Below are positions 22,831 through 38,739 of a stretch of DNA of 64,000 nt, piece by piece. Under the pieces are notes generated by a model. The model saw only the letters and a program-made list of their open reading frames with translations. It was not told the origin of the DNA and did no database searches. How positions within the stretch are numbered: the stretch's first letter is position 1; every line of letters starts with the position of its first letter. The stretch is taken from NCBI GenBank assembly GCA_027604505.1, contig JADIIX010000013.1:186001-250000 (forward strand), read 5' to 3'. Made by a program: the position numbers and the translations under genes. The stretch is from Gonapodya sp. JEL0774 (taxonomy: Eukaryota).

Positions 22831-24612
22831 TCACCTCCCTGGTCCGAAAATATGCTCCGGTGGAGGCGGTACGTGTCCCGTCCCAAGCTGCATCCTCGGA
22901 CGTGTTTGCCCGTCCGGCATTTGATTCGTCGGTGGGAAGCTTCTCTCGTTCCAAGAGTGGGGACTCGGGTGGTGTGGGAAACTAGGTCCCGTGGGATTTT
23001 GAAAGCTGTCGCGGGTAACGTGTGGAACAGGCGGTTGATAGCTAAAGCGGTGCGGATCCTCTTTGTAGGGTCCCACTTGAGGAGCCGGAATAGGGGGGTA
23101 TGAGTACGGTGACGGTGCGGGGTACGATGCGTTCGGCCCAGATGACGACGGCCGGAAGGTAGATGATGCACCAGGCCCAGAAGCATAGCCATAATACCCA
23201 TTGACAGCTGGAGGTGGACCATGGGGTGCGTAACTAGCTTGCTGTGAGTTCAACGGCGGATACTGATTCCACGGCTCCTGAATGGGGGGATAGTTGAGAG
23301 GACCTCGAGTACTTCCATACGGAGGAACAGATTGCGTGCTACCATTTGGAGGTGGGTGAGGCACGGAGTGCTGTCGAATTAACTCAGACTCGGCGAAGGA
23401 CGGTGGAGCACCTGACGGGTGGTTTTGTCGTAATTGCTGCGTGGAAGGAGAGTCCACAGGAAATTGGAGTGGCTCCCGAGTGTATTCGTCTTTTATTTGT
23501 CCAGACGCAGGGGTAGACGAATGTGGGGACGTGGAGGGCAACGCTGCCGAAGCAGCAATGGGCGGTGGTGTCAAATTGAGGTGGGTGCGGAGAGACTCGT
23601 TCTCGCGGCTGTATAGAAGCAGGAGCGACGCATGCGGTGAGAAGGATGACAAAGAGAACGATAGCTCATGCGACGGCGTTCGGATGTTTTCGGTTTAGGT
23701 GTGGTGACATTAAGTAAGCATTTGTAATTCCGCGGAACTGTGGCCCGATCAACCGGGAGTGGACACACTTTCGCCCTGGCATTCCGACGGTCCGTTTCTT
23801 GAGCCCATAGCAGCCTCAAAGTATCTCACGACGCACCGAAGAACTTCATTCTCAGATCTAAGCCAGTCACACTTTTCCTCCACTTGGCGTAAACTGTCTT
23901 CAAGGTCCTTGACGTATCGGTCCCTGCGGTCTATGTGAGCAAAAGCGGTGTACACATTTTCGCAATCGATATTAGAGTGTGTGGTGCGACAAAGAAGGGG
24001 TGCCGAATTCGCTCGGTGGTGCCGGCGGGTGCGTACCTCGAAATGCCTGGCCGGTGGTAGTATGTGACGTTATATGCTGAGAGAAATGTTTACATTCCGA
24101 GACACAGAGACAACTACGGAATCCACATTTAGGCCACGAACGTGATTCAAGTTCATCGGTGACTGTGAGATGCCTCCAAGAAAAAGTCCAATCGCGGGGT
24201 GGAGCGGTAAATGAGCCGCGGCAAAACCCATTGAGTCTTTGGAATTCCGGCAGTGGGCCACCAGGTCTTTGAAGAGCCAGTAGATAAGATCACAAATGCT
24301 CACCTTTTGTGCTGCTCTGTTCTGGGCCTTGCGCTTAGCCTCACGATCGTCTTCCACTATGTGGTCGCCAGGGTGAGACCTCCCTCTTCGATTTTGCCCG
24401 TTCCGCGCTGCAAGCGACGACCGGGAGGTGGCGTCATATACTTCGAAAGATAAATGAGAGTCGTCTTCTGGAGGACCGGTGGGTCTCATAGAGAAGAACG
24501 GCGGAGGGTTTGGTTCAAGAGTTGTGGGAGCGGATGGTAAATGTGGGGGCAGGTCGTTCCACTGACTCGGGGAGCATTCAGCAGAAGAAGACCCAGCCCG
24601 CGAGGTCATCAT
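22831..24612 (-). CDS. bZIP transcription factor, Yap/AP-1 type basic region, Pro-rich C-terminus
   Basis: Spliced DDREAKRKAQNRAAQK|AFR|DRRDRYVKDLEDSLRQVEEKCDWLRSENEVLR, including a 10-nt microexon at 24046-24037. Confidence 0.85.
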
Positions 24613-25231
24613 ACGAGCGCGCACCGGGGCAGAGGTGGAAATGGAAGCAAAGTCAAAGCTCCTTGTTTACAAACGTGTGACTAAGACAACCCTGGTGCAT
24701 GTTTTTCCGAATCACGTATTATGTGAGTTATGAAAATAGCTCCCAAGGTATCCGCCCTGTTGAGTATGCAATAAGAAGGAATTATTTGTAGTACATTTCC
24801 ATTCTTGTCCAAAATGTGTTGGAATTTTGCAACCAGAATGCCGTGTTTACGATCTCTTGACTGTGCGTGTGTGGGAACCGACCGCATCCCCAACCAGGAC
24901 TTCTTATCGCTGCGGGTCCGCTTCCGACTGGACGCAACATCGATGTTCCCATCCCTTGCATTTTCCCACCTCAATCAATCCACCCTTCCCCCTCTTCTTC
25001 TTTTTCGTCCTGTTGCCAATCCTCCTTCCTTTCCTTTTCATCTCAAGTTCAATCGCAGGTTGCGGTTATGGGCTTTGTTCGGGGGATCAAAAAATGAACG
25101 TTTGGCCGCTCAGAACTCCAAAGTACTGCCAGTGGTGGAAGGAGAAGTCGTCGATGATCGTTTCGGATCGGATTCGCATCAGCATGAACCGACGCGAATG
25201 GCAGGATCGGCCGTGACATCGCCAAAATTTG

Positions 25232-26796
25232 ATGCACCACATGTTCGCGCAATTCACAATCACCAACTCTACGTCGCAGAGCAGGTACGTATTTTGTTGA
25301 GAGTATTTTTTTAGCTGCCAGGATCAATGCTCTGAGTCCATCTACCCAAAGAACGCAATCCGAATGATGAAATTGGTACACGAATTCCCACAACTCCGCA
25401 CTATAGCCGCAGATGCAGTAAAGAAATCATCGACCGTCAGGCGAATAGACAACCGAGGTGGAGGGTCTCCATTGCCGATTCCAACTGCGGTCGCCCAGTT
25501 AAAGGAACCGCACACAAATGGAATGATCCCTCAAGATCTCGACAGCGAAGGAAAACCTCTCATTACAGAGGTGCGTTTCCCCTCCATGATCCTTTGTGCG
25601 TACGCGTGTATAAAAATGAAACGCTCGAAACGTCGTAACGTCGTTGTAGGGCCAGCTGCGCTCGTTCCTCTTCCGTGAACACCAACAAACCCGCCCCGAC
25701 GGAAAGCGCAACCCCGCAATGACAACTTCTGTCCCCGTTGTCGCACGTGCACGGCTTTCGGACAATCTCGGGTGGGTGCCCGGGGGCAGAAACGCACGGG
25801 ATAAAGAAGGTATCAAAGTTCGACTCGCCCACGCCAAGGAGGATGCGGTCAGTTGGGCCCACGTGGAATATGATGGATGCCTCTGCAAAATTGATGCTCA
25901 CGCGGCACTTTTCACCACCATCAGGAAGCGTACCGTCAACCCACCGAACAACTATGGCAAGAATACTGGACTGTCCGACCCTCCTCCGCAACGGGCTGGC
26001 AAGGAATCGTCGAGGAGCGGATAGAGCAAGCGAAACGTGCCGGTCTCTTCGACGATATCAAAGGTCGGGGTCGCCCAATCCAAGAATCCTCGGACAGTAA
26101 TAACCCGTTCTTGGATCGCACAGAGTATTTCTTGAACAAGGTGGGTGGGTGAAAAGTTTCCCTGCTTCTCAGAGTTGTCTCTCAACCTTCCAAATTTGAA
26201 TCTCGAAAGGCGATCAAATCCCAAGGGAACAGACCTTACTTTATCGAAATGAGTAAAGATATCGACGAGGAGATTCGTCTGTTCCGGAAAGAGGTGGGTA
26301 GCATTGCCCAACGCCCCACACTGCCCTTCCTGATTCCCTGACCTTTCTTCCCCCTTCCCCCCTCGTCTCTACACCAGATGCGCCTCATTTATGAAAGCGC
26401 GACCACACCTCCAGCGCCACCTAGGCCCGCAACTTCCACGTCGCACTGGCTCAGCTTCTCCTCTTCGGTGACTTCAAACCAATCGCGGAACCGAGCGTCG
26501 TCCACACCTCCTCATTCCCCAACGACCGCAGGCACACTTCCAGCCTCCTACACACGGCGAGCTACGTCGCATGCCGCCGGCAAAGTTAAGGAGATCAATG
26601 AGTGAGAATGTTGTCGTTGTTGGACTTTAAATCAGTATGACGGTGTTCTGATTTTGGCACTGCCCTGTCTGTTGAATAGTCGGATTCGGTAGGTTCTGCG
26701 TTCTCGTCTAACAGCAAGACCTCGTGTTTCAACGCAAAAATGTGGATCTTGGCTCCAGGAATTACAACATGACTGTGCCACGAGGGATTCCAGAGG
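25232..26796 (+). CDS. DUF1992 / DNAJC28-conserved-domain protein, multi-exon, not captured by the ORF track; both ends approximate
   Basis: An exon at about 25925-26140 reads WQGIVEERIEQAKRAGLFDDIKGRGRPI..NNPFLDRTEYFLNK. It is followed by AIKSQGNRPYFIEMSKDIDEEI and ..EINDRIRDYNMTVP, and preceded by KVRLAHAKEDA|EAYR. Confidence 0.8.
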
Positions 26797-27060: not shown

Positions 27061-30000
27061 TCACGTTGGCCGCAACTGTCGACCTGTCACCTGGGTAATC
27101 ACCTGCTCTAACCGTTGCACTCTATCTAACAACTTTGCATTGCGCTCTTTGAGTGCCATGATGAGCATGTCTTTCTCCCTGCACTCCATACACTGGTCTA
27201 CATCTCCAAGCTGCTGGACAGTTCCGCCGGCGTACATTCGAGCCACAACAGACTTATCTAGTCGCTCAAGGGACGATTTATGACGCGCGGATGGGCGGGG
27301 GCTATGATGGTGATGATGAAGGTGGTGGGGTGGCTCTTGTGGTTGAGAAGTTCGAGGAGGGGCACCAGCTTCATCGCCAGAGGAAGCAGAGGAAACTGAG
27401 CCAGACTGCCACGACGAACCACTCTCGGAGCTGGTTCCGCTTGACCCACTGCTTTTCACCTCGTCGTGTTCCAGGATCTCCCGGATCTCGGAGGGATTGA
27501 GGATCGCCTTGTGCTCCAACAGTTTGCGGCGACCCATCAACACTTCCCCAACCTCTGACTGCAGTTGTTGAGTGAAAGCGCAGTTGGGATTGTCCCCTTC
27601 GATCTCCAAGGCTTCTCCGTTCCATTTCTTAATGATCATCTCCTTGGCAATGACGGCACCATTGGGAGTGGCTATATGGGGGACAGGATCACTGGGAGGT
27701 TTGGGTCCATACTCCAACGAGAGATTAGGATATCGTGAGGCTGTGAGAGGATCTAGTGTGTTGAGGAGAGGGTGCGCCAGAATCTCCAGGGCGGAGAGTC
27801 TTTGTGCGGGATCTGGAGCAACCATGCGCTTGAGGACCGAGTACTGAATTGGCAAAAAGGAATATTCACGCCTCTTTGAGTTGATGTACAACAGGATTTT
27901 GCGCGAGACATTCGTGTTCTTACCTCCTTGGGCCATCTTCGCTTAAATCCTTCGGGTACAACACCTTTCCTCAGGTCCATGAGTGTCATGACTCGCTCCA
28001 TTGCAGAAGAGAATGGCCAATAGAGTTCAAAAAACAACACACCAAGCGAATAAATATCCGTTTTCGAGTCGTAACGACGTCGCGACAGTTGCTCGGGGGA
28101 TGCATAGAGAAGGGTGCCAACTCCCAAGGTCAGGTTGACTGTTTGAGTGAGGTGACCTAGAAAATTCAAATTAGAACTAACATGAACTCGACCAAACATG
28201 CGTAATGATGAGAAATGACGCACCATCCTCAGCAAGTTTCTTGATCAGGGTTTCGTCAATCTTCCCACCATTCTTCTGGACCTGCTCGACGAGCATATCC
28301 TTCTCCGCTTCATCTATCTCTTTGTTCTGAAGCATCTCATCCCAAAGATCTCTTACGAGCTCGGTTTCGGTTTCCGGCATATGTCGTTGTTTTTGGCTGA
28401 TATCTTTGGCAAGCCCGAAGTCCCCTAACAGGACATGATCATCCTCTTGCAAAAATACTATGTAATCGACAGAATAGGAAAGTTGGGCGACACTAAACTG
28501 CAAAATCAGGTCGAATGAATTCAGAGATGTCTCACCGTTGCCAGGCTTGATATCGCGATGGATGAACCCGGAAGAGTGTACATGCGCCAACTGATACACC
28601 AAAAAGAAAAATCGACACTAATTTAAAGACAAACGAGACGCCCACAACATACCCCTTGCACGATCTGCCTGAAGATGCGTTCATTCCGTCTCTTCTCAAT
28701 TATAACCCTCGGCCGTTGAGCGTTTCTCGCCTGGAGCCACTTGTGCAGGTTTGTCGAGGAGCACAATTGCATCTGGATAAATAACACAGTGGATCCTTCC
28801 CGTTGCTCTGTTTGCGCGGTTTCCCGAGCTCCATGAGGCAAGTCTTCAGGAGCTGTTGGCCGCGCACGTTGCGAAGAAGATGATGGGATTGGTACAGGAG
28901 ACGGCTGCTGAGTTGGTGGAGGGACAAAAACTGGCATCGGCGGAGCTACAAAAGCTTGCTGGCCTGGGGCGAAGAAAGGCTGCTGGATCGCTGCACCCGG
29001 CGGGGGAACGAATTGCGGCAGTGGGATGGGACCAACAGGTGGGAGACCACCCGCTGCAGTGGACGCTGGTGTTGTGACTCGTAGTGGAACTGGAGTTGGT
29101 GGTGTGGAGGGAGGGGGACGAGGCATCCCCGCCAGAGGCGACGAGGCAGCCGGAATCGTCGAGACGAGAGTTGCAGACTTGGTTCTTTGTCTGGATGGTG
29201 GCTCCAGTGCCTTTTTCGCAGCTTTCGTATCTCGAAATGGCTCCCCAGTTGCAAGTCGAGGGGGCACGGAGGTCAGCACGGGCATAGGGTGCACCGGCGG
29301 GGGTCCCACAGGCGCGCGATCCACCGGCACAGGTGCTGGCGCTGGAACTGGCCTGACAACTAGCGGTGGTGCTATCGAACTAACCACTTGAGAGATCGCC
29401 TTGGGACCGCTGGAAGACAATACCCCACTTGGTCCACGTGGTCGTTTCGGCACAGGTGGTGGAGCCTTCTGTCCCACCTTCGCACCGACAACACCTTCAC
29501 CGCGTCCTTTTAGCGGCGGTCCTGAGCTCGGACTGATACTCCCAGCTACTCCTACTGCGGCGCTGCTTGCCGACGAGTCCGACTCTACGCCCGCATCCTC
29601 AGTATCTCCATCAGTTCCTTTCGTGGTCGCCACGGCCACGTTGAGCGAAGGGTGGTGGAATTTGCTGGGTTGATGCGTCTGTGACTGTCCTTGTTCTGTC
29701 AAGGGTGAGTCCTGGTGCCGGAAACCTTCCGCGCTGTCGTCCAACGCCCGCTCGAAGACGGAGTTTGCTGTGAGAACAATCTTCATGCTAGGCGTAGCCT
29801 CAGTTGCGGTCGAGGGGATTGCCAAGGGGAACGACTCGCCACCGGGCCTTGACGGTGCCATTCCCATCGTTGCCTGCACTCCACCCCCAGCACGCACTGT
29901 CCCCGTCGCGCCTGCGATGAGTTCAATGTTATGTATTGCCGGCAACATCCCCGATGTCGAAGACCCCGAGGACCTCACGAACACCGACTCTGACCCCGTA

Positions 30001-33000
30001 CTCCCGGTGGGAGCTTCCACCGAGGACCCCGTGCCCGCCGAGTCCTGCCTCACGTGCGATCCACCCAGCAGCATCCCACTCGTCCCACCACCAGCCTCGC
30101 CAGACGACCCCGACGCATCCGCTCCACCTTGATGAATGTTGGGCCCGCTCCCACTGGACCCCGAGGTCGGCCCGGACGACATGGCACGACCACCACCATC
30201 ACCACGCTTGCCCAGGGCCCCTTCATCAGACTCTTCGGTGTCCGTTGTGTCAGTATCACTGTCATTCCCAGTCCCAAGCGCCTGCAATCCGGCACCGGCA
30301 CCGGCCAGCCCCACCGCCGCATCGTCGGTCGCTGTTCCACGACGGGGCACTCCGCCGCGCGCGCCGGCACGGAGCTTGCCCTTGCTTGCCCTCCCCCGTT
30401 CACCACCAGTGCTCGACTTCACGCCCGTGCCCGTCCCACCCCTCACCGTCACCGTCGTCGCCGTTCCAGTACCCGCAGTACCAGCAGTCCCCTCCCCTTC
30501 CTCTTCCTCCTCCTCTACCACCCTGCTCTCCCTCTTCCCGGCCCCGCTCTTCCCCCTCGCTCCCTCCTTCCCCCCGGCGGGCCCACCCACCCCCTGCGCC
30601 TGTCCTTGCCCTGCACCCCCCTTGGGCTCTATCCCGGTTCCCGCGCCCTCCCCCTCGAACACGGCCTCGACCCAACTGTTGAAATATCTCACCACGTTGG
30701 GGTGGTTCGATATCCTCGCGAACGTCTTCACCTCCCTGATGATCCTCGCGTCGTCAGGACCCAAGTGCGTCCCGGTGTTGGTGTTGGTGCCCCCATGCAG
30801 TGGGTGGCCCCCCGTCCCGGTCCCCATCCCCGTTCCCGTCACGGGCCCGGTATGCCCCGACCCCTGTCCCCCGCCCCCCCTCCCAGCCGACGCTGTCCTC
30901 GTTCTCACCCCCCTCCCAGTCCCAGCCCGCCCGTCCCCGCCAACCACCACCGACCCTGTCCCTGTGGTCCCTGTGGTATCCCCCGCCCCGCCCATGGACA
31001 CGGACCCGTCCGACCGTATGTCGGACGGCGAGGCCTCGGAGGGGCTTTGTGGGTGTCCTCCTCCTCCGGGGGGATGTACGACGTTGTGGGACTGAGAGTG
31101 GTTACGGGAGGTGGGTGGGGTGGTGGGGGCGTGGATGGACTAGGTGGGGGTTGGTGGGGGGGGTGTGGTTTGGTCAGTCACGCACATGCATTTCCCAGCC
31201 TGTACGTCCCGTCCCGTCCCCAACCCCACCCCGCCCAACCCAACCCACACCCCACACCCCACGCAACGTACGCTCATATAATCCTGCGGATGGCACTGCA
31301 ACCTGACCTTCTTCACGGCGTACTCTTGTCCGTCGAGTCGGTTGCGCGCCCTGAACACAGCGCCGAAACCGCCTTTGCCGAGAAAGGCGAGTTCTACGGG
31401 GGGAGGGGGCGCAGGTCGTGATCCGGGTCGCTCTGCCGCTCAGGGGCCCGCCCATCCCATCCCAATTTACCCCCCTCCTCTCCCTCCCCCCCCCCCCCTC
31501 CCCCAACCCACCTTCAAACTCCCCCAAATACCGACTGGCCCCTCCCCACTCCACAGCCCCCCTGCCTCCCGCCTCCTTATCCCTAATCGTGGCCACAAAG
31601 ATCCGTCCCATATCTGGCCCGGTGGTGGTGGACATCGTGGTGTGCGTGCTGGACGTGGTGGTGCTGGAGAGGGTGGGCAGGTGGGGTAATGGTGTGGCCG
31701 TGGTGGCGGGGGTGGCGGGGGGGGTGGACGGGGGCAAGGGGGAAGGGGAGGTGGCGGGGACAGGGTCACGGGGGAACTCGCCGAGGGGGACAAAGATGGC
31801 ACGGTTGGTAGGGCCGTTGCGGGGTTTTGCGGAGTTTGCGTGGTTGCCGAGGTTCACCACCCCAGTCCACACCTCACACCTCGAGTGACACGTCCCACGT
31901 CCTACGTCAACACCGCTGTGCCTGCGTCCCGCGTGCTGCGCAATACGCGCCATCGAGCCAGGTTCACAGTCCCGAGTGCCCGCATCCCGAGCGCCGGGTG
32001 ACGGGTCACGGCCCGCCGTCCGTGAATTCAACTTGTTCCGTCCACACCCTGCTCACCCCGCTCCCCATGTGCCATCAACGCAGCGTGCCACTGTCCCTCG
32101 TCCCACGATTTTTCTTTCTTTTTCCTCGTGCCGCGGGTTTCGCTCGCTCGCAACCACATCTCGACTCTGACTCGACACAACCACCATGGCCCCCGACCGC
32201 GGCCACATTCATGGTTCATGATCCACCACACCGGCCACCGCCCACCGCAGACCGCACATCGACCACCACCACACCCAGACTCGAAAAGCCCGCACCGCCA
32301 TTCCATCGTACCATTGCTACCGACCCGCCCCACCGTCCGCGCGCGCCGTACCGTACCGAGACCACCGCGTCCGCCTGCCGCCCTCCCAACCGCCGCCCTC
32401 CCACTTTTCACTTTTCACTTCCAACCTCCCACTCCCCCCGACCATACCACCCCCTCCCCCACCGCCCCAGTCTTACCCACCCTCGGCCTCCCCCCCTCCT
32501 TGAGATAACTCCTCATGTACCTGTCGTGGTTGCGGGCAAAGACCGAGGGCATGAGGATGCGGACCTGGGAGGGAGGGGGGTGGTGGGTGGTGGGATGAGT
32601 GGGAGTCGGTTGGTTGGCCTCGTACACATAGGAAAGGGCTGACAGTCGTTTCAAGGCAATCGCCTCCCGCGGACTGTGCCCGCCGCTGACGCTTGCGAGT
32701 CGCTCCGCTCGGGATCAATCGCCACCGGCGGGACTGTGCCCCGTCGCTAGCGCTCGGCCCACTCAACGCACATTCTGGAGTCCGACGACCTCGTGTTTTG
32801 CCCAACCAAACATTCTCGATGCGGCGGAGTTGAACTCGATGATCGTGCCGTCGCCGTTTGCGACGATGACAGCGTCTATGATTGAGTCCATGAAGGAGAG
32901 GACAGGGAGGTTTGCGCCTGAGGAGGAGGAGGCAGAGCGGGATACGGCGGAAGGGAGGGGTTGGAGGGGTGGGTGTGGTGGGTGTGGTGATTGGGATGGG

Positions 33001-33323
33001 TGGGGTGGGTGGGGTGGATGGGATGGGTGTGGTGGATGGGATGGGTGGGATGGGTGTGGGGATGGGGGCCATGGCGGGTGTGCGGGAGAGGGAGAGGGAG
33101 AGGGAGAGTGAGAGGGAGAGGGGTTGAGTTGGTGGTGTTGATGGGTGTTGGATGGGAGACTTGGGACTGGAATGAATCCACTCTGCACGTTGCTGCTGCT
33201 GTGTGCTGTCTGTGCTGAGAGTGCTGTGTGTGCTGTCTGCATTCCCCCTGTGTCCCCACCCCCACTCTCTCTCCCCTCCACTCCCATCGCATCCCCCAAT
33301 TTCTCCTTCTCCCAATCCCCCAT
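27061..33323 (-). CDS. eIF2-alpha kinase (HRI-like) with an N-terminal FixL-type PAS domain and very large kinase inserts
   Basis: SRYLGEFE|ELAFLGKGGFGAVFRARNRLDGQEYAVKKVRL; REVKTFARISNHPNVVRYFNSWVE; LFIQMQLC; IHRDIKPGN; LGDFGLA; TLGVGTLLYASPEQL; DIYSLGVLFFELYWPFSSAMER; C-terminal coiled coil. PAS exons lie at about 32900-32772, 32564-32481 and 31850-31580. The start (33323 or 33242) is uncertain, and one apparent frameshift lies near 31070. Confidence 0.88.
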
Positions 33324-34160
33324 TCAACTCTCCTTTTCCTCTCCTTTCCCCTAACGCTGATATTTCCTTGTTCTGTTCTCCTTCTTCCCGCTCTGTTGTG
33401 TCCTTCCCTCACCCCCTCCGTTCCTGCTCCACCTGGCCCTGTCCTGTATTCTGCCAATCGATCACGCTCCCCTGTTTTCCTCTCTATGATTTTTTATCCC
33501 GTCCCGTCCCGAGCCTGTGCTCCCGTGTTCGCACCCGCCGCTCGTGACTCCAATCCCGTTTTGCGTCTCGCCTTCAGTATGACCTCAATGCTCGCACAGG
33601 GCTCAACAACACCAACACACATCCTGGCGTTCCCACCACCTCCCCTGAAACTTTCGCTAGTACATTTTCACCCACCCACAAGTACCTATACCCCTTGCTT
33701 TGTTTGCTCATTTCATTCACTCTCTCCTCATCCCCAAAATGTAAGTTTAATCAAACTTTTTTCACGCACATACCGACGACAACTGCTTCCTTCCCACGCT
33801 TTCAATCCGCGCGAGACGAATCAAGTTACGCGCGCGGTCTTGGGCCTTGGACCCACTGAGATTGTCCCCGTCTGCCGTTCATACCGACCCCTGTTGATCC
33901 CCTTTTGGTCGACCCCCGGATCCGGCCGATGGACGTGTCATATGCATACCGCGTCCTGCTTACCCCTGCTGAGAGATAGACACCCGTTCGTAGTTCGTAT
34001 GGTCCGGGCCCCTTCTCTCAACTTTACTCCCTTCCAGTGTTTCGGAGTACATAATATTGTGCATCATGAGAGAGTCTCGCGGTCACGTGTCACGTTCTTT
34101 CATCCTTCGCAGTTCTCACACGCAACTTTGTTCAACATGACCCCACCAACAACCCCCACC

Positions 34161-34250: not shown

Positions 34251-35563
34251 CGGCGTACCACAAACTCGTGCACACACGTCACACCAGACCTGGCCCATTC
34301 GTGGTCCGAGCACAGTGCACACCACGGGTGCGGAGTTCGAACCCCGTGGGCGGTGGCGGGTAGGTCGTGCCAGCCACTTACTCTTATCGACACGAATGTT
34401 CAAACCGTGGCACTCTTTTTCCGGTACCTGATGGTTTCCCTCTGCAGAGATTTGAGTGGCGAGAATATGTCTATATGTGTGTATGTACGAGGGCAGCGCG
34501 CGGGCCCCGGCTGACCTCGGTGTCAGATGTGCCGCCGAATTGGAACCTTGGTGGGGGGGCGGGGGAACAGCAGGTGCGTCGTGCGGTGTACGGGTTCCAT
34601 ATGTTTTGCGTATGATGGAGATGGGGACTAGGGGGTAGGGTGAAAGAGCGAGCGTGTACAGGAGTGGGTGTGTGGGAGGGGACCGGCGTGTGGCAGCGTG
34701 CGACCGTGCGTGCAAGTTGCAACATATTCTCTCGCTCGCCAGACGCTTCACGCCAGGATAAACTCGGGGTGGAAATCACGTATCACGTCTCACGGCTCGT
34801 CTGGCCCACGGTGTGCGGCGGGTGGCGGGTGGGCGAGTGTGGAGATGGGGTGTGGGATGGGTTATGTGGGATGTGGCGTGGAGGGGGCAGATCGGATGGA
34901 GTATGGGACTGTACCAGATGCTGTGCCACAGACAGGCGGGTGCGAGCCGTGGAATGTGGGATTTAGGAATGTCCAGACAGTGGGGATCCAAGGTCAAGGT
35001 CATCAGTTGTACACTGAGAGTGCGGTGGGGGTTGGCACCTGGTGGTCACTGTGTGTACCGGGGTTTTGTTTTGTTTTGTTTTTTGGACAGATCGTGGTCG
35101 TTGGGACTGGGGGGAGTGGACGGATGGTTGGTAAGGGTGGGAACACCACATGAAAAAAATAATACCCGCACATGGCAAAACCTCAGGATATTAGAGTGTC
35201 CAGTATTTGGGGACAGAAAAGGGGAACAATTCCGCAGAGCCACATTACATATGCAGCTTGTGATGTAGAGTGCTCCTTAGAAGTTTACTTTGTATAGCAA
35301 AGGAAAAACATTTCTCTCCCCCTCACACTGACAAAACTTGAACGAAGTAATGAGATATTACATAATTAGATACCGACAAATAAAATGCTATGCATGAATA
35401 TTCATACCTTACATATGCATGTATTATCCTCCACCGCACTCACCTTTGTACCGCCATTCGGGCCATTCGCTCACACCACTCCACCCCCAGTCCCGCAGTT
35501 CCCACCTTGGAAGACTAAAGTCACAACCACTGGCAGTCTTCCTGAAAATACCCACCCAGCGCT

Positions 35564-36147: not shown

Positions 36148-36973
36148 TCACAGCCTCGCCTCACTCCAGAGTTCGGCGGCAGGCCTAAGCACCACCGCGT
36201 GCGCGTCGTGGTCGAGGTCTGTGTGGTGCTCGTTGTGCCGGTGGTGACAGATGCTTCGCGTGGTCGTGGACGGCGGCGCTAACTCCGGGTTGTCGGCCAA
36301 GATACGGGTTTGCATTTCATGAAAATCTGCGGATGACCAGGTGTTACTTTGGGGTGGAAAGAAACGGGGTTGAGTTTTGTTTTCGGGAGTCGAGGAGTGC
36401 CGGAGAAACCACCACCAGATGAGTCACCCACCACACCAGCGCGGTTAAATCCGCCACTGTCATGTCCACGTGAGGTTCTGAGCACCTTGTTTCCTCTTCC
36501 CCGTGTTTCTGCGCGGCCTCATTCTCTCCTCCCGATGCGACCGTGGTATTGGTAAGATTTTCATGCACCACCCAGAGGGCGGTGAGTCCGACCTGCTGGT
36601 AATCCCTCAAAGGAACGAAGCGCCGAGTAGTGTAGCTTCCGTTTTGTGTATGGTAGTAAGGTAGTTGTGTATGTATGTGGGCAAAGGGGAGAAAGAGCAG
36701 GGTACTGTTCAAACAGTGTTCCCAGGCAGCCGCCGGATCCCAGAAAGGGTAGCTACGTTGGACCCACTGGCGGACCAACCTCGGCGGGATGGAAACACTC
36801 TCGCATTCCACGCACCTATCGACGATCCTCGTGGCTTCCCTCATGGTGTCCTTGCTTGTTCTGAGTTCCCGCGCAACTTGGGCGAGCCATCCCAGGAGAA
36901 CCGTGCGGTGTTCCGGCGTTATCTCTGGCACGCGGGATGTGCTCAGCTGTGGTGTGCTTTCTGTGATCGACAT
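36148..36973 (-). CDS. Divergent cyclin-N-box-only protein (3 exons)
   Basis: ITPEHRTVLLGWLAQVARELRTSKDTMREATRIVDR..VPLRDYQQVGLTALWV..VADLTALVC|NTWSSADFHEMQTRIL matches cyclin-box helices 1-5, followed by a short His-rich tail. Confidence 0.7.
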
Positions 36974-38739
36974 GCGTCGCGGTGTGCGGGGTTGATGTAA
37001 TATATGGAATGCGAAGGGAAAGGTCCAGTCACGTCGGTGAATAATACATACGCTGAGATCGGTCCTGTTTGCACCTTATCAATTAATGTATAAAATATAC
37101 GCAATCCGTATCAAGAAACAAATAGAGCTATTACCGCTGCAGTTTCAATCGGATTATCGGACTCCGCCAATTCTTTTTTTGACCTCGGGTCGTCAGAAGC
37201 CGGCGGACGGACACTGATACAGATGTCCGCGTCTAAGTGAGCACAGTATAACTGAACAACCTGTATAAATGAATACGATGCGCCAATCCCGACAGGGTTA
37301 ATTAGAAATTATTCAAAATTCTACAATAATGAATAATGAATACAGAATCTGAGCTGACGGGTATATGGTATCCCGTGATACGGAGAGCACCGGAACGTCC
37401 TTTTTTACGTTTTACAAGACATACATCGTGATCGCTGAACTAAATAATAGGCAAGGACGGGTTCTTTGTCATCCAATCGAACAAGTGCTGCATGATTGAG
37501 GGTGGATTGGATGGTTGGTAGAAAGGTTCACTGCACTAGTAACCAAGTCAAAATCAATGAAATTATGTATTCTCATACCACTTACTCCAATCCTTGGGTA
37601 CTTTTTGTCGTCTGAGTTGGTCTGAATAAAGGTCGCGACTCCATTACCACAACGCGCAGTTGACAGGTCCGTTCGCTTTACCATGGCCTCGCGGCAACCG
37701 AGAGGACAAGCACACAGCATTAGGTGCAATTACGTGGACTCAAATTGAGCTGCAAGCTCTAAAACAGAAGAAATTAGTTCAAAGTCATACAAGGCTTCAT
37801 GGCCTCGCGAGATGGTTATGGAGAATTACATAACTGCGAGAATGAATATCCTGTAGACTGATAATACAAGATCCCTGTCCCGACGGTATTCACTTAGAGA
37901 GGGACATCTGTAGAGTTATGAAAAATGAACGGGGCCTTGCTGGTAGTCTAGAAGCGGCTTTGAGATGAGACCGGTCATGATTCGGAACAGTTATACAAAA
38001 TACCGACTTCATAGAGGGCATCCCCAAATACACTAACAACTGAAAGCTTCCTCATCGCTCGCTCATAAACGAGACCACAATGAGGAAGGACTCTCTGGAG
38101 TGTAGGAGGGGAAATTATACGATGACTGCGCATTAGTGTCATCCCCTGCCGGTGCTACTAGGGCATATAGGCTAACGCTAGCCACCGCTGCTCAGGCATT
38201 TCTTCTAAAGATTATTGCATCAGATGATTTCGGCGGGAGCGTTTATTGTCTGTCTCGACGTGGTTTGTTTGCTTCGGACAGAAGTGCAACCCGAAAAACT
38301 CAAAACGAAAAAAATACTGAAGGATCGAGAACGCGAAAGTGGGGAATCTTCCAAGCCGCCAAAACTTGGTCACGGAACCGGGAGTTGAAACGAACGGAGA
38401 AGAGCGCACAAATCTGGTAAGTGGACCCTCTCTTGCGGAAACGGGGACGACATACTGGCGTTCCGAAGCGGCGGGGACGCCAGGAGAACCAAGAACGTTG
38501 GAGTCATGGACAGTACCCGTTCTCGTATGTCTTACCCGGTCTGTAGCCTTTCTCAGATCAAATCTCGGAATCTGCGGAGCTTTGGCGTTGAACGAATCGA
38601 ACAAAACCACCCCAGTCTGAGTCAAACGCTTGTTCCCTGACACCACCACGTTGCGTTCCTGCGTTCCTGCGCTCCCACATTTTGTGATTTGTGTGCGTAC
38701 AAGAGATTTTCCGAATAAGGTCACTTGTGCCTCGCAAGG

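Follow-up and report, generated by a model that had tools for sequence, protein, structure and literature searches.

A family of PAS-linked eIF2-alpha kinases with predicted haem binding in its intact members, and a copy garbled as assembled in Gonapodya sp. JEL0774

A stretch of 64,000 nucleotides of Gonapodya sp. JEL0774 (contig JADIIX010000013.1, positions 186,001 to 250,000; hereafter the window, numbered from its first letter) carries on its minus strand a split gene, running from about 32917, where the first exon found begins, to 27061, in which PAS exons precede a protein kinase of the eIF2-alpha type. The first-pass annotation of this DNA had read the gene as a haem-PAS domain like that of rhizobial FixL, fused to an HRI-like eIF2-alpha kinase. 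The gene belongs to a family combining PAS and eIF2-alpha-type kinase domains, which is almost certainly real. By analogy with FixL, a FixL-type His is predicted to hold haem in its intact members, which, with roughly even chances of being so, would turn translation down when O2 leaves the haem. The sensor of the window copy is garbled as assembled, and an assembly error is more likely than true decay.

PAS exon 1 (32772..32917), which encodes the opening strands and helices of a PAS domain of the FixL type, matches the Pfam PAS profile at E 2e-8 and the NCBIfam FixL profile at E 5.8e-6, and shares 22-26 of 40 residues with three intact relatives. It is followed by an intron of 207 nt (32565..32771), which begins with GTGCGT and ends with CCCAG in a pyrimidine-rich end (83%), as had been described, and which joins two exons that are contiguous in relatives. 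PAS exon 2 (32481..32564), identical to three intact relatives at 9-12 of 20 residues, supplies the F-alpha helix with the equivalent of the FixL proximal-ligand His. The claim that this residue is kept was upheld: codon 32528-32526 reads CAC, for His, and aligns on the FixL proximal His through P0014, one of the database proteins denoted here by P numbers. The assignment to the FixL type is likewise sustained by the two profile matches of exon 1 and by the PAS domain of P0014, all of whose PDB matches at E up to 1e-12 (7/7) are FixL, the best at 1.8e-20 with one gap. The alignment of P0014 with FixL places His on His and Arg on Arg. On the FixL whole-protein family model, which describes a histidine-kinase protein, intact relatives score 62-80 bits, below the cut-off of 850.

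The kinase is identified by sequence and fold as an eIF2-alpha kinase, in agreement with the first-pass annotation. Four downstream open reading frames were scanned as kinase pieces and three of them match Pfam Pkinase. The set of catalytic motifs is complete (glycine loop, Lys, helix-C Glu, HRD, DFG, APE-type), and alignment to HRI (9rhh) and PERK (4x7h) shows the RY..EF start, an insert between subdomains IV and V and the L.IQM motif, which are features of eIF2-alpha kinases. The NCBI model of the window gene, P0001 (which its source names an eIF2-alpha kinase of Gonapodya sp., with 100% identity across the query), was compared with PDB: its 19 matches at E up to 1e-20 are all eIF2-alpha kinases or a GCN2 mutant (19/19), HRI leading PERK by a hair (E 8.7e-49 vs 1.6e-48). 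The AlphaFold model of a relative, P0069 (pLDDT 81, pTM 0.70), consists of PAS, short link, kinase and terminal helix, and its top 18 Foldseek matches are PERK, PKR and GCN2.

The description of the kinase as HRI-like was not substantiated. HRI2_3H, the Pfam domain for the helical haem domain of HRI, was found in none of the window open reading frames, P0001 or the PAS relatives, and is present in 65 other matches. The RWD, pseudokinase and HisRS-like domains of GCN2 are missing from the Pfam lists of P0001 and its relatives. No PERK-type membrane helix is indicated in P0001, where the top 19-residue hydropathy is 1.09, and the PAS domain occupies the place of the luminal domain. Domain content supports neither orthology to PERK nor orthology to HRI.

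Relatives were collected by searches with the kinase as query (13 matches), with PAS plus N-lobe as query (14 matches), and with two profiles, one weighted towards the kinase and run against 1.84 billion representatives (best 150 of 3,298 at E up to 1e-30), the other weighted towards protists (best 120 of 160). Many proteins among the matches listed carry PAS and kinase in one chain, and the combined architecture, for which a search among early-diverging fungi had been proposed, was found in chytrids, gut fungi and Rigifila. The fusion is real at the family level, while the joint in the window copy is not confirmed. The Rigifila ramosa protein (P0127), which also has both domains in one chain, derives from Trinity transcripts; this organism is a CRuMs protist. 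Its PAS domain and those of fungi are about 53% identical. In metagenomes, 20 of 80 loci have PAS and N-lobe in a single unbroken frame; metagenome loci were assigned to gut fungi by likeness and by a GC content of 22-30%.

The proximal His is kept in ten relatives (P0004, P0014, P0007, P0008, P0039, P0069, P0081, P0127, P0152 and P0192). All ten, rows picked for having His, also have the distal Arg, and each of the four positions of the distal face is hydrophobic in them (10/10). A CxxC motif followed by a coiled-coil-like helix closes the window protein and nine other clade members, out of 20 proteins examined by a scan whose anchor failed for several protist-type rows. A search of the ESM Atlas with residues 50-250 of P0007 returned generic PAS clusters only (0.86-0.90).

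Some further features of the family were recorded on the way. The gut-fungal-type sequences (P0015-P0021, P0009/P0012, L048/L054) comprise three PAS-kinase paralogues. A second kinase of Rigifila ramosa, P0054, has a PAS domain that looks decayed by eye and gives no profile match. Four chytrid kinases (P0057, P0186-P0188) carry the source name 'ornithine decarboxylase antizyme', an apparent mislabel.

For phylogenetic analysis, kinase cores were taken from 164 proteins; 23 incomplete cores were dropped and 17 near-duplicates left out, giving 147 rows, from which sets of 80 and 73 rows were drawn by thinning. The rows come from the top of searches that started from the PAS-kinase family, the trees were built with no mixture model, and P0038, P0054, P0028, P0030 and P0033 were labelled as PAS kinases by eye or by clade. 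P0152 and P0192, His-bearing PAS kinases, have further kinase domains in the same chain, so that their extracted cores may be mixed. The window kinase groups with P0004 and P0007 (99/93, 73 rows), and these three form with Piromyces proteins a clade supported at 96/98 (80 rows) and 100/98 (73 rows). One branch separates all PAS-labelled rows, along with two or three others, from the rest (80/8 with 80 rows, 86/73 with 73 rows); strict monophyly of the PAS kinases is not rejected by the approximately unbiased test (p-AU 0.54). GCN2, PERK with PKR, and animal HRI each form a supported clade of their own. The PAS kinases lie outside the supported HRI clades, in trees with weakly supported deep nodes, where HRI does not form a single clade. 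A forced union with PERK is 46.9 log units worse (p-AU 0.057), and one with GCN2 is not rejected (p-AU 0.245). The trees set the PAS kinases apart from HRI, GCN2, PERK and PKR with weak support. In a tree of PAS domains, 12 of 14 kinase-linked domains form a group (99/99) against 28 bacterial domains; when the window exons are added all 15 kinase-linked domains group together (91/99), with a long-branch warning. A donor lineage for the PAS domain is left unclaimed because the tree holds only 10 bacterial proteins.

The proposed mechanism is modelled on FixL, in which His200/194 is the proximal ligand, Arg220/214 contacts O2, and Ile209, Ile210, Leu230 and Val232 line the distal face (PMC10765370, in the part available). 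Within the FixL cluster, haem binding is described as depending first of all on the proximal His (PMC10468136, likewise in part). The PAS domain of intact members is, on this analogy, probably a haem-binding domain, and O2 is predicted to be the regulating signal, a proposition on which the balance is even. Haem would be bound through the FixL-type His, and O2 on the haem would be held and reported through the distal Arg. Between the end of the last PAS strand and the SRY motif lie 12-15 residues; in known eIF2-alpha kinases this motif opens the back-to-back dimer surface. The change could be relayed over this 12-15-residue linker to the dimer motif at the start of the N-lobe and, as in known eIF2-alpha kinases, would lead to autophosphorylation and to phosphorylation of eIF2-alpha Ser51. 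Translation would be lowered on loss of O2 from the haem; that the kinase is active without O2 is a direction which we borrow from FixL and assume to hold here.

Observations at the window locus and in the family weigh against this reading. At the locus, P0001, mapped as seven exons starting from Met 31953, omits PAS exons 1 and 2. The H-I loop of the PAS domain is expanded in the window copy to 57 residues, against 16-21 in five relatives. The length of the PAS domain in relatives demands a phase-0 joint from 32481 to 31854, and no AG acceptor stands before 31854, where the bases are TG. Finally, an intact Arg-bearing strand was not found elsewhere in the window.

The stretch to be removed by such a joint (31855..32480) is G-rich and intron-like, with donors at 32480 (phase 0) and 32476 (phase 1), and has no pyrimidine-rich AG end: the 30 bases upstream of the TG are 33% pyrimidine, compared with 55-83% in 7 other introns surveyed. 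Three alternative in-frame joints exist, with acceptor tracts of 38%, 41% and 55% pyrimidine; two of them add residues, one removes two PAS strands, and none has the family's acceptor. A PAS domain split over three exons, as claimed by the first-pass annotation, is accordingly borne out for exons 1 and 2 and the intron between them, while the splice from exon 2 to the third exon is not. The claimed continuity of the third exon with the kinase does hold: the frame that opens at 31854 is free of stops, takes in the last PAS strand and, with the intron 31511-31394 removed, reaches the start of the kinase at SRY...GKGGFG.

The 30 residues encoded by 31854-31765 are the top match to the G and H strands of relatives among 127,816 window positions, without gaps, with 7-10 of 30 residues identical, where relatives share 19-28 of 30 among themselves. 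Only the last 13 of these residues carry score, the first 17 giving -5 against about 70 for an intact copy. The distal Arg is therefore missing, Ala standing at its place (Arg220/214) in the copy as assembled, and the proposed FixL turn counterpart 'AKPRNGPTN' is invalid. The garbled G-beta remnant (31804..31854) keeps the family length, lacks the distal Arg and the next turn, is 80% A+C (6% T, 14% G), and so differs from the adjoining exons in composition. A frameshift-aware alignment of the region scored only 34, against a null of 24 +/- 4.7 (5/150).

It is possible, though it falls short of the more probable account, that the window copy has truly lost its sensor, acceptor and G-beta strand having decayed and a PAS-less or PAS-truncated kinase being made, either from Met 31953, as in the NCBI model, or by a splice from 32476 to 31614 which skips two strands; this would concern the window copy only. 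The TG in place of AG, the missing pyrimidine tract and the omission of PAS from P0001 are in keeping with such a loss, and the strongest donor (GTAAGA, phase 1) fits an in-frame CAG at 31614. At the DNA level the first 17 codons score 2.5 on the sense strand, a value reached by 14/400 shuffles, compared with about 43 for an intact-like control; decay of the PAS domain is, moreover, frequent in this family. However, exons 1 and 2 and the H and I strands remain conserved and open, and the garbled stretch has exactly the family length and a make-up unlike that of the neighbouring exons. A local assembly error is favoured because the lesion is small, affecting about 60 nt and the acceptor, the family length is kept and both flanks are conserved. 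It is further backed by the faint sense-strand likeness that remains, and by the fact that none of the ten intact His-bearing relatives has His without Arg (0/10). We consider such an error somewhat more probable than not to underlie the garbled strand. Since acceptor and O2-binding Arg strand are absent as assembled, the window copy is a poor test object, and the intact relatives are suitable ones.

On the plus strand, 31786-31865 contains a motif resembling the missing G-beta strand plus KDGT, in swapped order. At 31815-31850 the motif was reached in 0/1000 local and 1/200 wider dinucleotide shuffles for 12 columns, and in 10/200 for 17 columns. An inversion of the missing strand was set aside because the stretch is a 9-nt quasi-repeat, which shuffling destroys, and because a codon-aware DNA test is null there (109/400). 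The motif is likely an echo of a 9-nt CG periodicity; a fold-back chimera may also lie behind it.

In the family, the contrary observations concern the haem ligand. Kinase-linked PAS domains without His outnumber those with it in the set found. The residue, read by eye, is kept in 0/20 gut-fungal-type loci, and is likewise missing from the PAS kinases of Piromyces finnis. It is also missing from a second clade, which holds Borealophlyctis, Phlyctochytrium, Blyttiomyces, Batrachochytrium, Polychytrium, Entophlyctis, Boothiomyces and Gorgonomyces and to which aerobic chytrids belong. With the His absent from so many members, the family functions in many lineages without haem. The place of FixL Arg206/200 is variable in relatives (E, D, N, K, R) and holds S in the window copy, and 40% of FixL-cluster sequences themselves are without the His (PMC10468136, in the part available). 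To these points is added the monophyly of the PAS kinases, which is weak, a few non-PAS rows lying inside the group. Loss of His does not track anaerobiosis alone, since aerobic chytrids of the second clade lost it too, and it was discarded as a general marker of anaerobes.

Two other readings of the PAS domain are each judged unlikely. In the first, the domain would read the supply of haem and not a gas, reversibly bound haem inhibiting the kinase, in convergence with the helical haem domain of HRI. The overall layout is that of HRI (sensor, split kinase, C-terminal coiled coil; PMC13181343, in part), and the gut fungi, which need outside haem and seem to be without its synthesis (PMC8561657, in part), have lost the His. 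Against this, Arg and a closed hydrophobic pocket are kept together with His in the 10/10 tabulated relatives, as expected for a gas site, and the aerobic chytrids of the second clade have lost the His as well. In the second, the domain would be haem-free, serving in dimerisation or as another small-molecule module, with His and Arg inherited from a FixL-type ancestor. The excess of His-less domains fits this, and PASK is a precedent for a FixL-cluster PAS with changed function (PMC10468136, in part); yet His, Arg and pocket are jointly kept between fungi and Rigifila in spite of a PAS identity of only about 53%. Binding of haem and sensing of O2 by the intact members are retained as the preferred reading. 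As for the output, a substrate other than eIF2-alpha is very improbable: Wee1 and Myt1 are close in fold (Z-scores 27.2 and 25.6, against 29.6 for PERK and 25.8 for PKR, in a search of P0069 residues 136-500) and the branch falls with resolution inside none of the four known classes, but in sequence searches the matches to eIF2-alpha kinases surpass those to any other kinase by 12 orders of magnitude or more, and the family motifs align with those of HRI and PERK.

The first-pass annotation knew of no FixL-type PAS domain on an eIF2-alpha kinase. As a PAS-kinase architecture the combination is not new, because an N-terminal PAS, with redox sensing suggested, was reported in 2021 on 'PERK-like' kinases of the gut fungi Neocallimastix californiae and Piromyces finnis (PMC10512342, in the part available). 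The FixL type and the haem ligand were not found in print: in the literature searched, no paper placed a PAS of the FixL type, or one that binds haem, on an eIF2-alpha kinase, with subscription journals and the chapter of Rothenburg et al. (2016) lying outside it, and none dealt with the range of PAS-bearing eIF2-alpha kinases beyond gut fungi, although the supplement and trees of PMC10512342 may show a wider distribution. The available text of that paper does not mention FixL, calls the kinases devoid of the haem domains of HRI, and deals with four gut fungi only; that of PMC13600944, which treats the haem pathway of HRI, has nothing on PAS domains. The gut-fungal kinases share with the window gene an N-terminal PAS and an eIF2-alpha-type kinase, and the Piromyces finnis proteins P0012 and P0020 fall in its 100/98 clade. 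They differ in having a PAS without the haem His and, in one paralogue, a C-terminal membrane helix (hydropathy 2.3-2.7 vs 1.09 in the window protein).

With FixL the intact relatives share the PAS sequence, proximal His, distal Arg and pocket residues; they differ in output, a Ser/Thr kinase here and a histidine kinase in FixL, and in not keeping Arg206/200, and the window copy as assembled also lacks the distal Arg. PASK is a CAMK-group kinase, not an eIF2-alpha kinase, and human PASK has no haem His. It nevertheless resembles the present family as a eukaryotic Ser/Thr kinase under a PAS related to the FixL cluster (PMC10468136, in part). HRI shares the sensor, the split kinase with insert and the C-terminal coiled coil (PMC13181343, in part), and differs in having its helical haem domain (HRI2_3H) where the PAS stands here. 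The family is real and under-described; what is new are the members that keep His and Arg, and the reach of the family beyond fungi into a protist.

The four textbook eIF2-alpha kinases sense amino acids, load of the endoplasmic reticulum, double-stranded RNA and haem, and hypoxia is thought to reach them indirectly. A haem-PAS-gated kinase, if true, would connect O2 with translation through one protein in eukaryotes that live in oxygen-poor waters and sediments, and would give the 'PERK-like' kinases described in 2021 an origin. More tentatively, the family could represent a fifth, ancient class of eIF2-alpha kinase, derived from one fusion of a bacterial FixL-type haem-PAS with a kinase of the integrated stress response before fungi and CRuMs split. 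This would have wired O2 directly to translation initiation; the class would have been lost in animals and Dikarya, and its haem ligand stripped several times, including in anaerobic gut fungi.

The remainder of the gene follows the same order, which is PAS, short linker, split kinase with long insert, and CxxC plus helix. Upstream, the acceptor scan places a phase-1 acceptor for PAS exon 1 at 32919-32918, which suggests more exons upstream; a strong, phase-1-compatible donor at 34381 (34381-34443, minus strand) could pair with acceptor 32918 and supply the true N-terminus. The stretch 31512..31803 encodes H-beta, the low-complexity H-I loop and I-beta, then a linker of 14 residues and the SRY with which the kinase begins. 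After the intron 31511-31394, an N-lobe exon (31272..31393, Pfam Pkinase) contains the glycine loop and catalytic Lys. P0001 takes an early donor here, losing 12 family-conserved residues after the catalytic Lys (31272-31307), and donor 31271 is the better family fit. A large exon (28653..31139) encodes helix C and subdomain IV, followed by a kinase insert of low complexity (about 630 residues) and the LFIQMQLC motif. The C-lobe, with HRD, DFG, activation segment and alpha-G, is spread over three exons (27924..28590, inner ends approximate), and the last exon (27061..27843) contains the kinase end, a low-complexity tail and the CxxC, then the coiled-coil-like helix (about 27192-27091).

The region 30001-34000 reaches a GC content of 60-68%, compared with about 50% in the remainder of the window; it contains 9-nt repeats at 32930-33073, and its introns start G-rich and end C-rich. 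Among neighbouring genes, 23749-24666 on the minus strand is a spliced bZIP-like gene with an NRAAQ basic motif, whose second piece has no Pfam match and which by eye we take to be of the Yap/AP-1 type. A gene with a DnaJ C28 conserved domain (E 2e-12) lies at 25895-26152 on the plus strand, and one with a cyclin N-domain (E 1.6e-6) at 36344-37075 on the minus strand.

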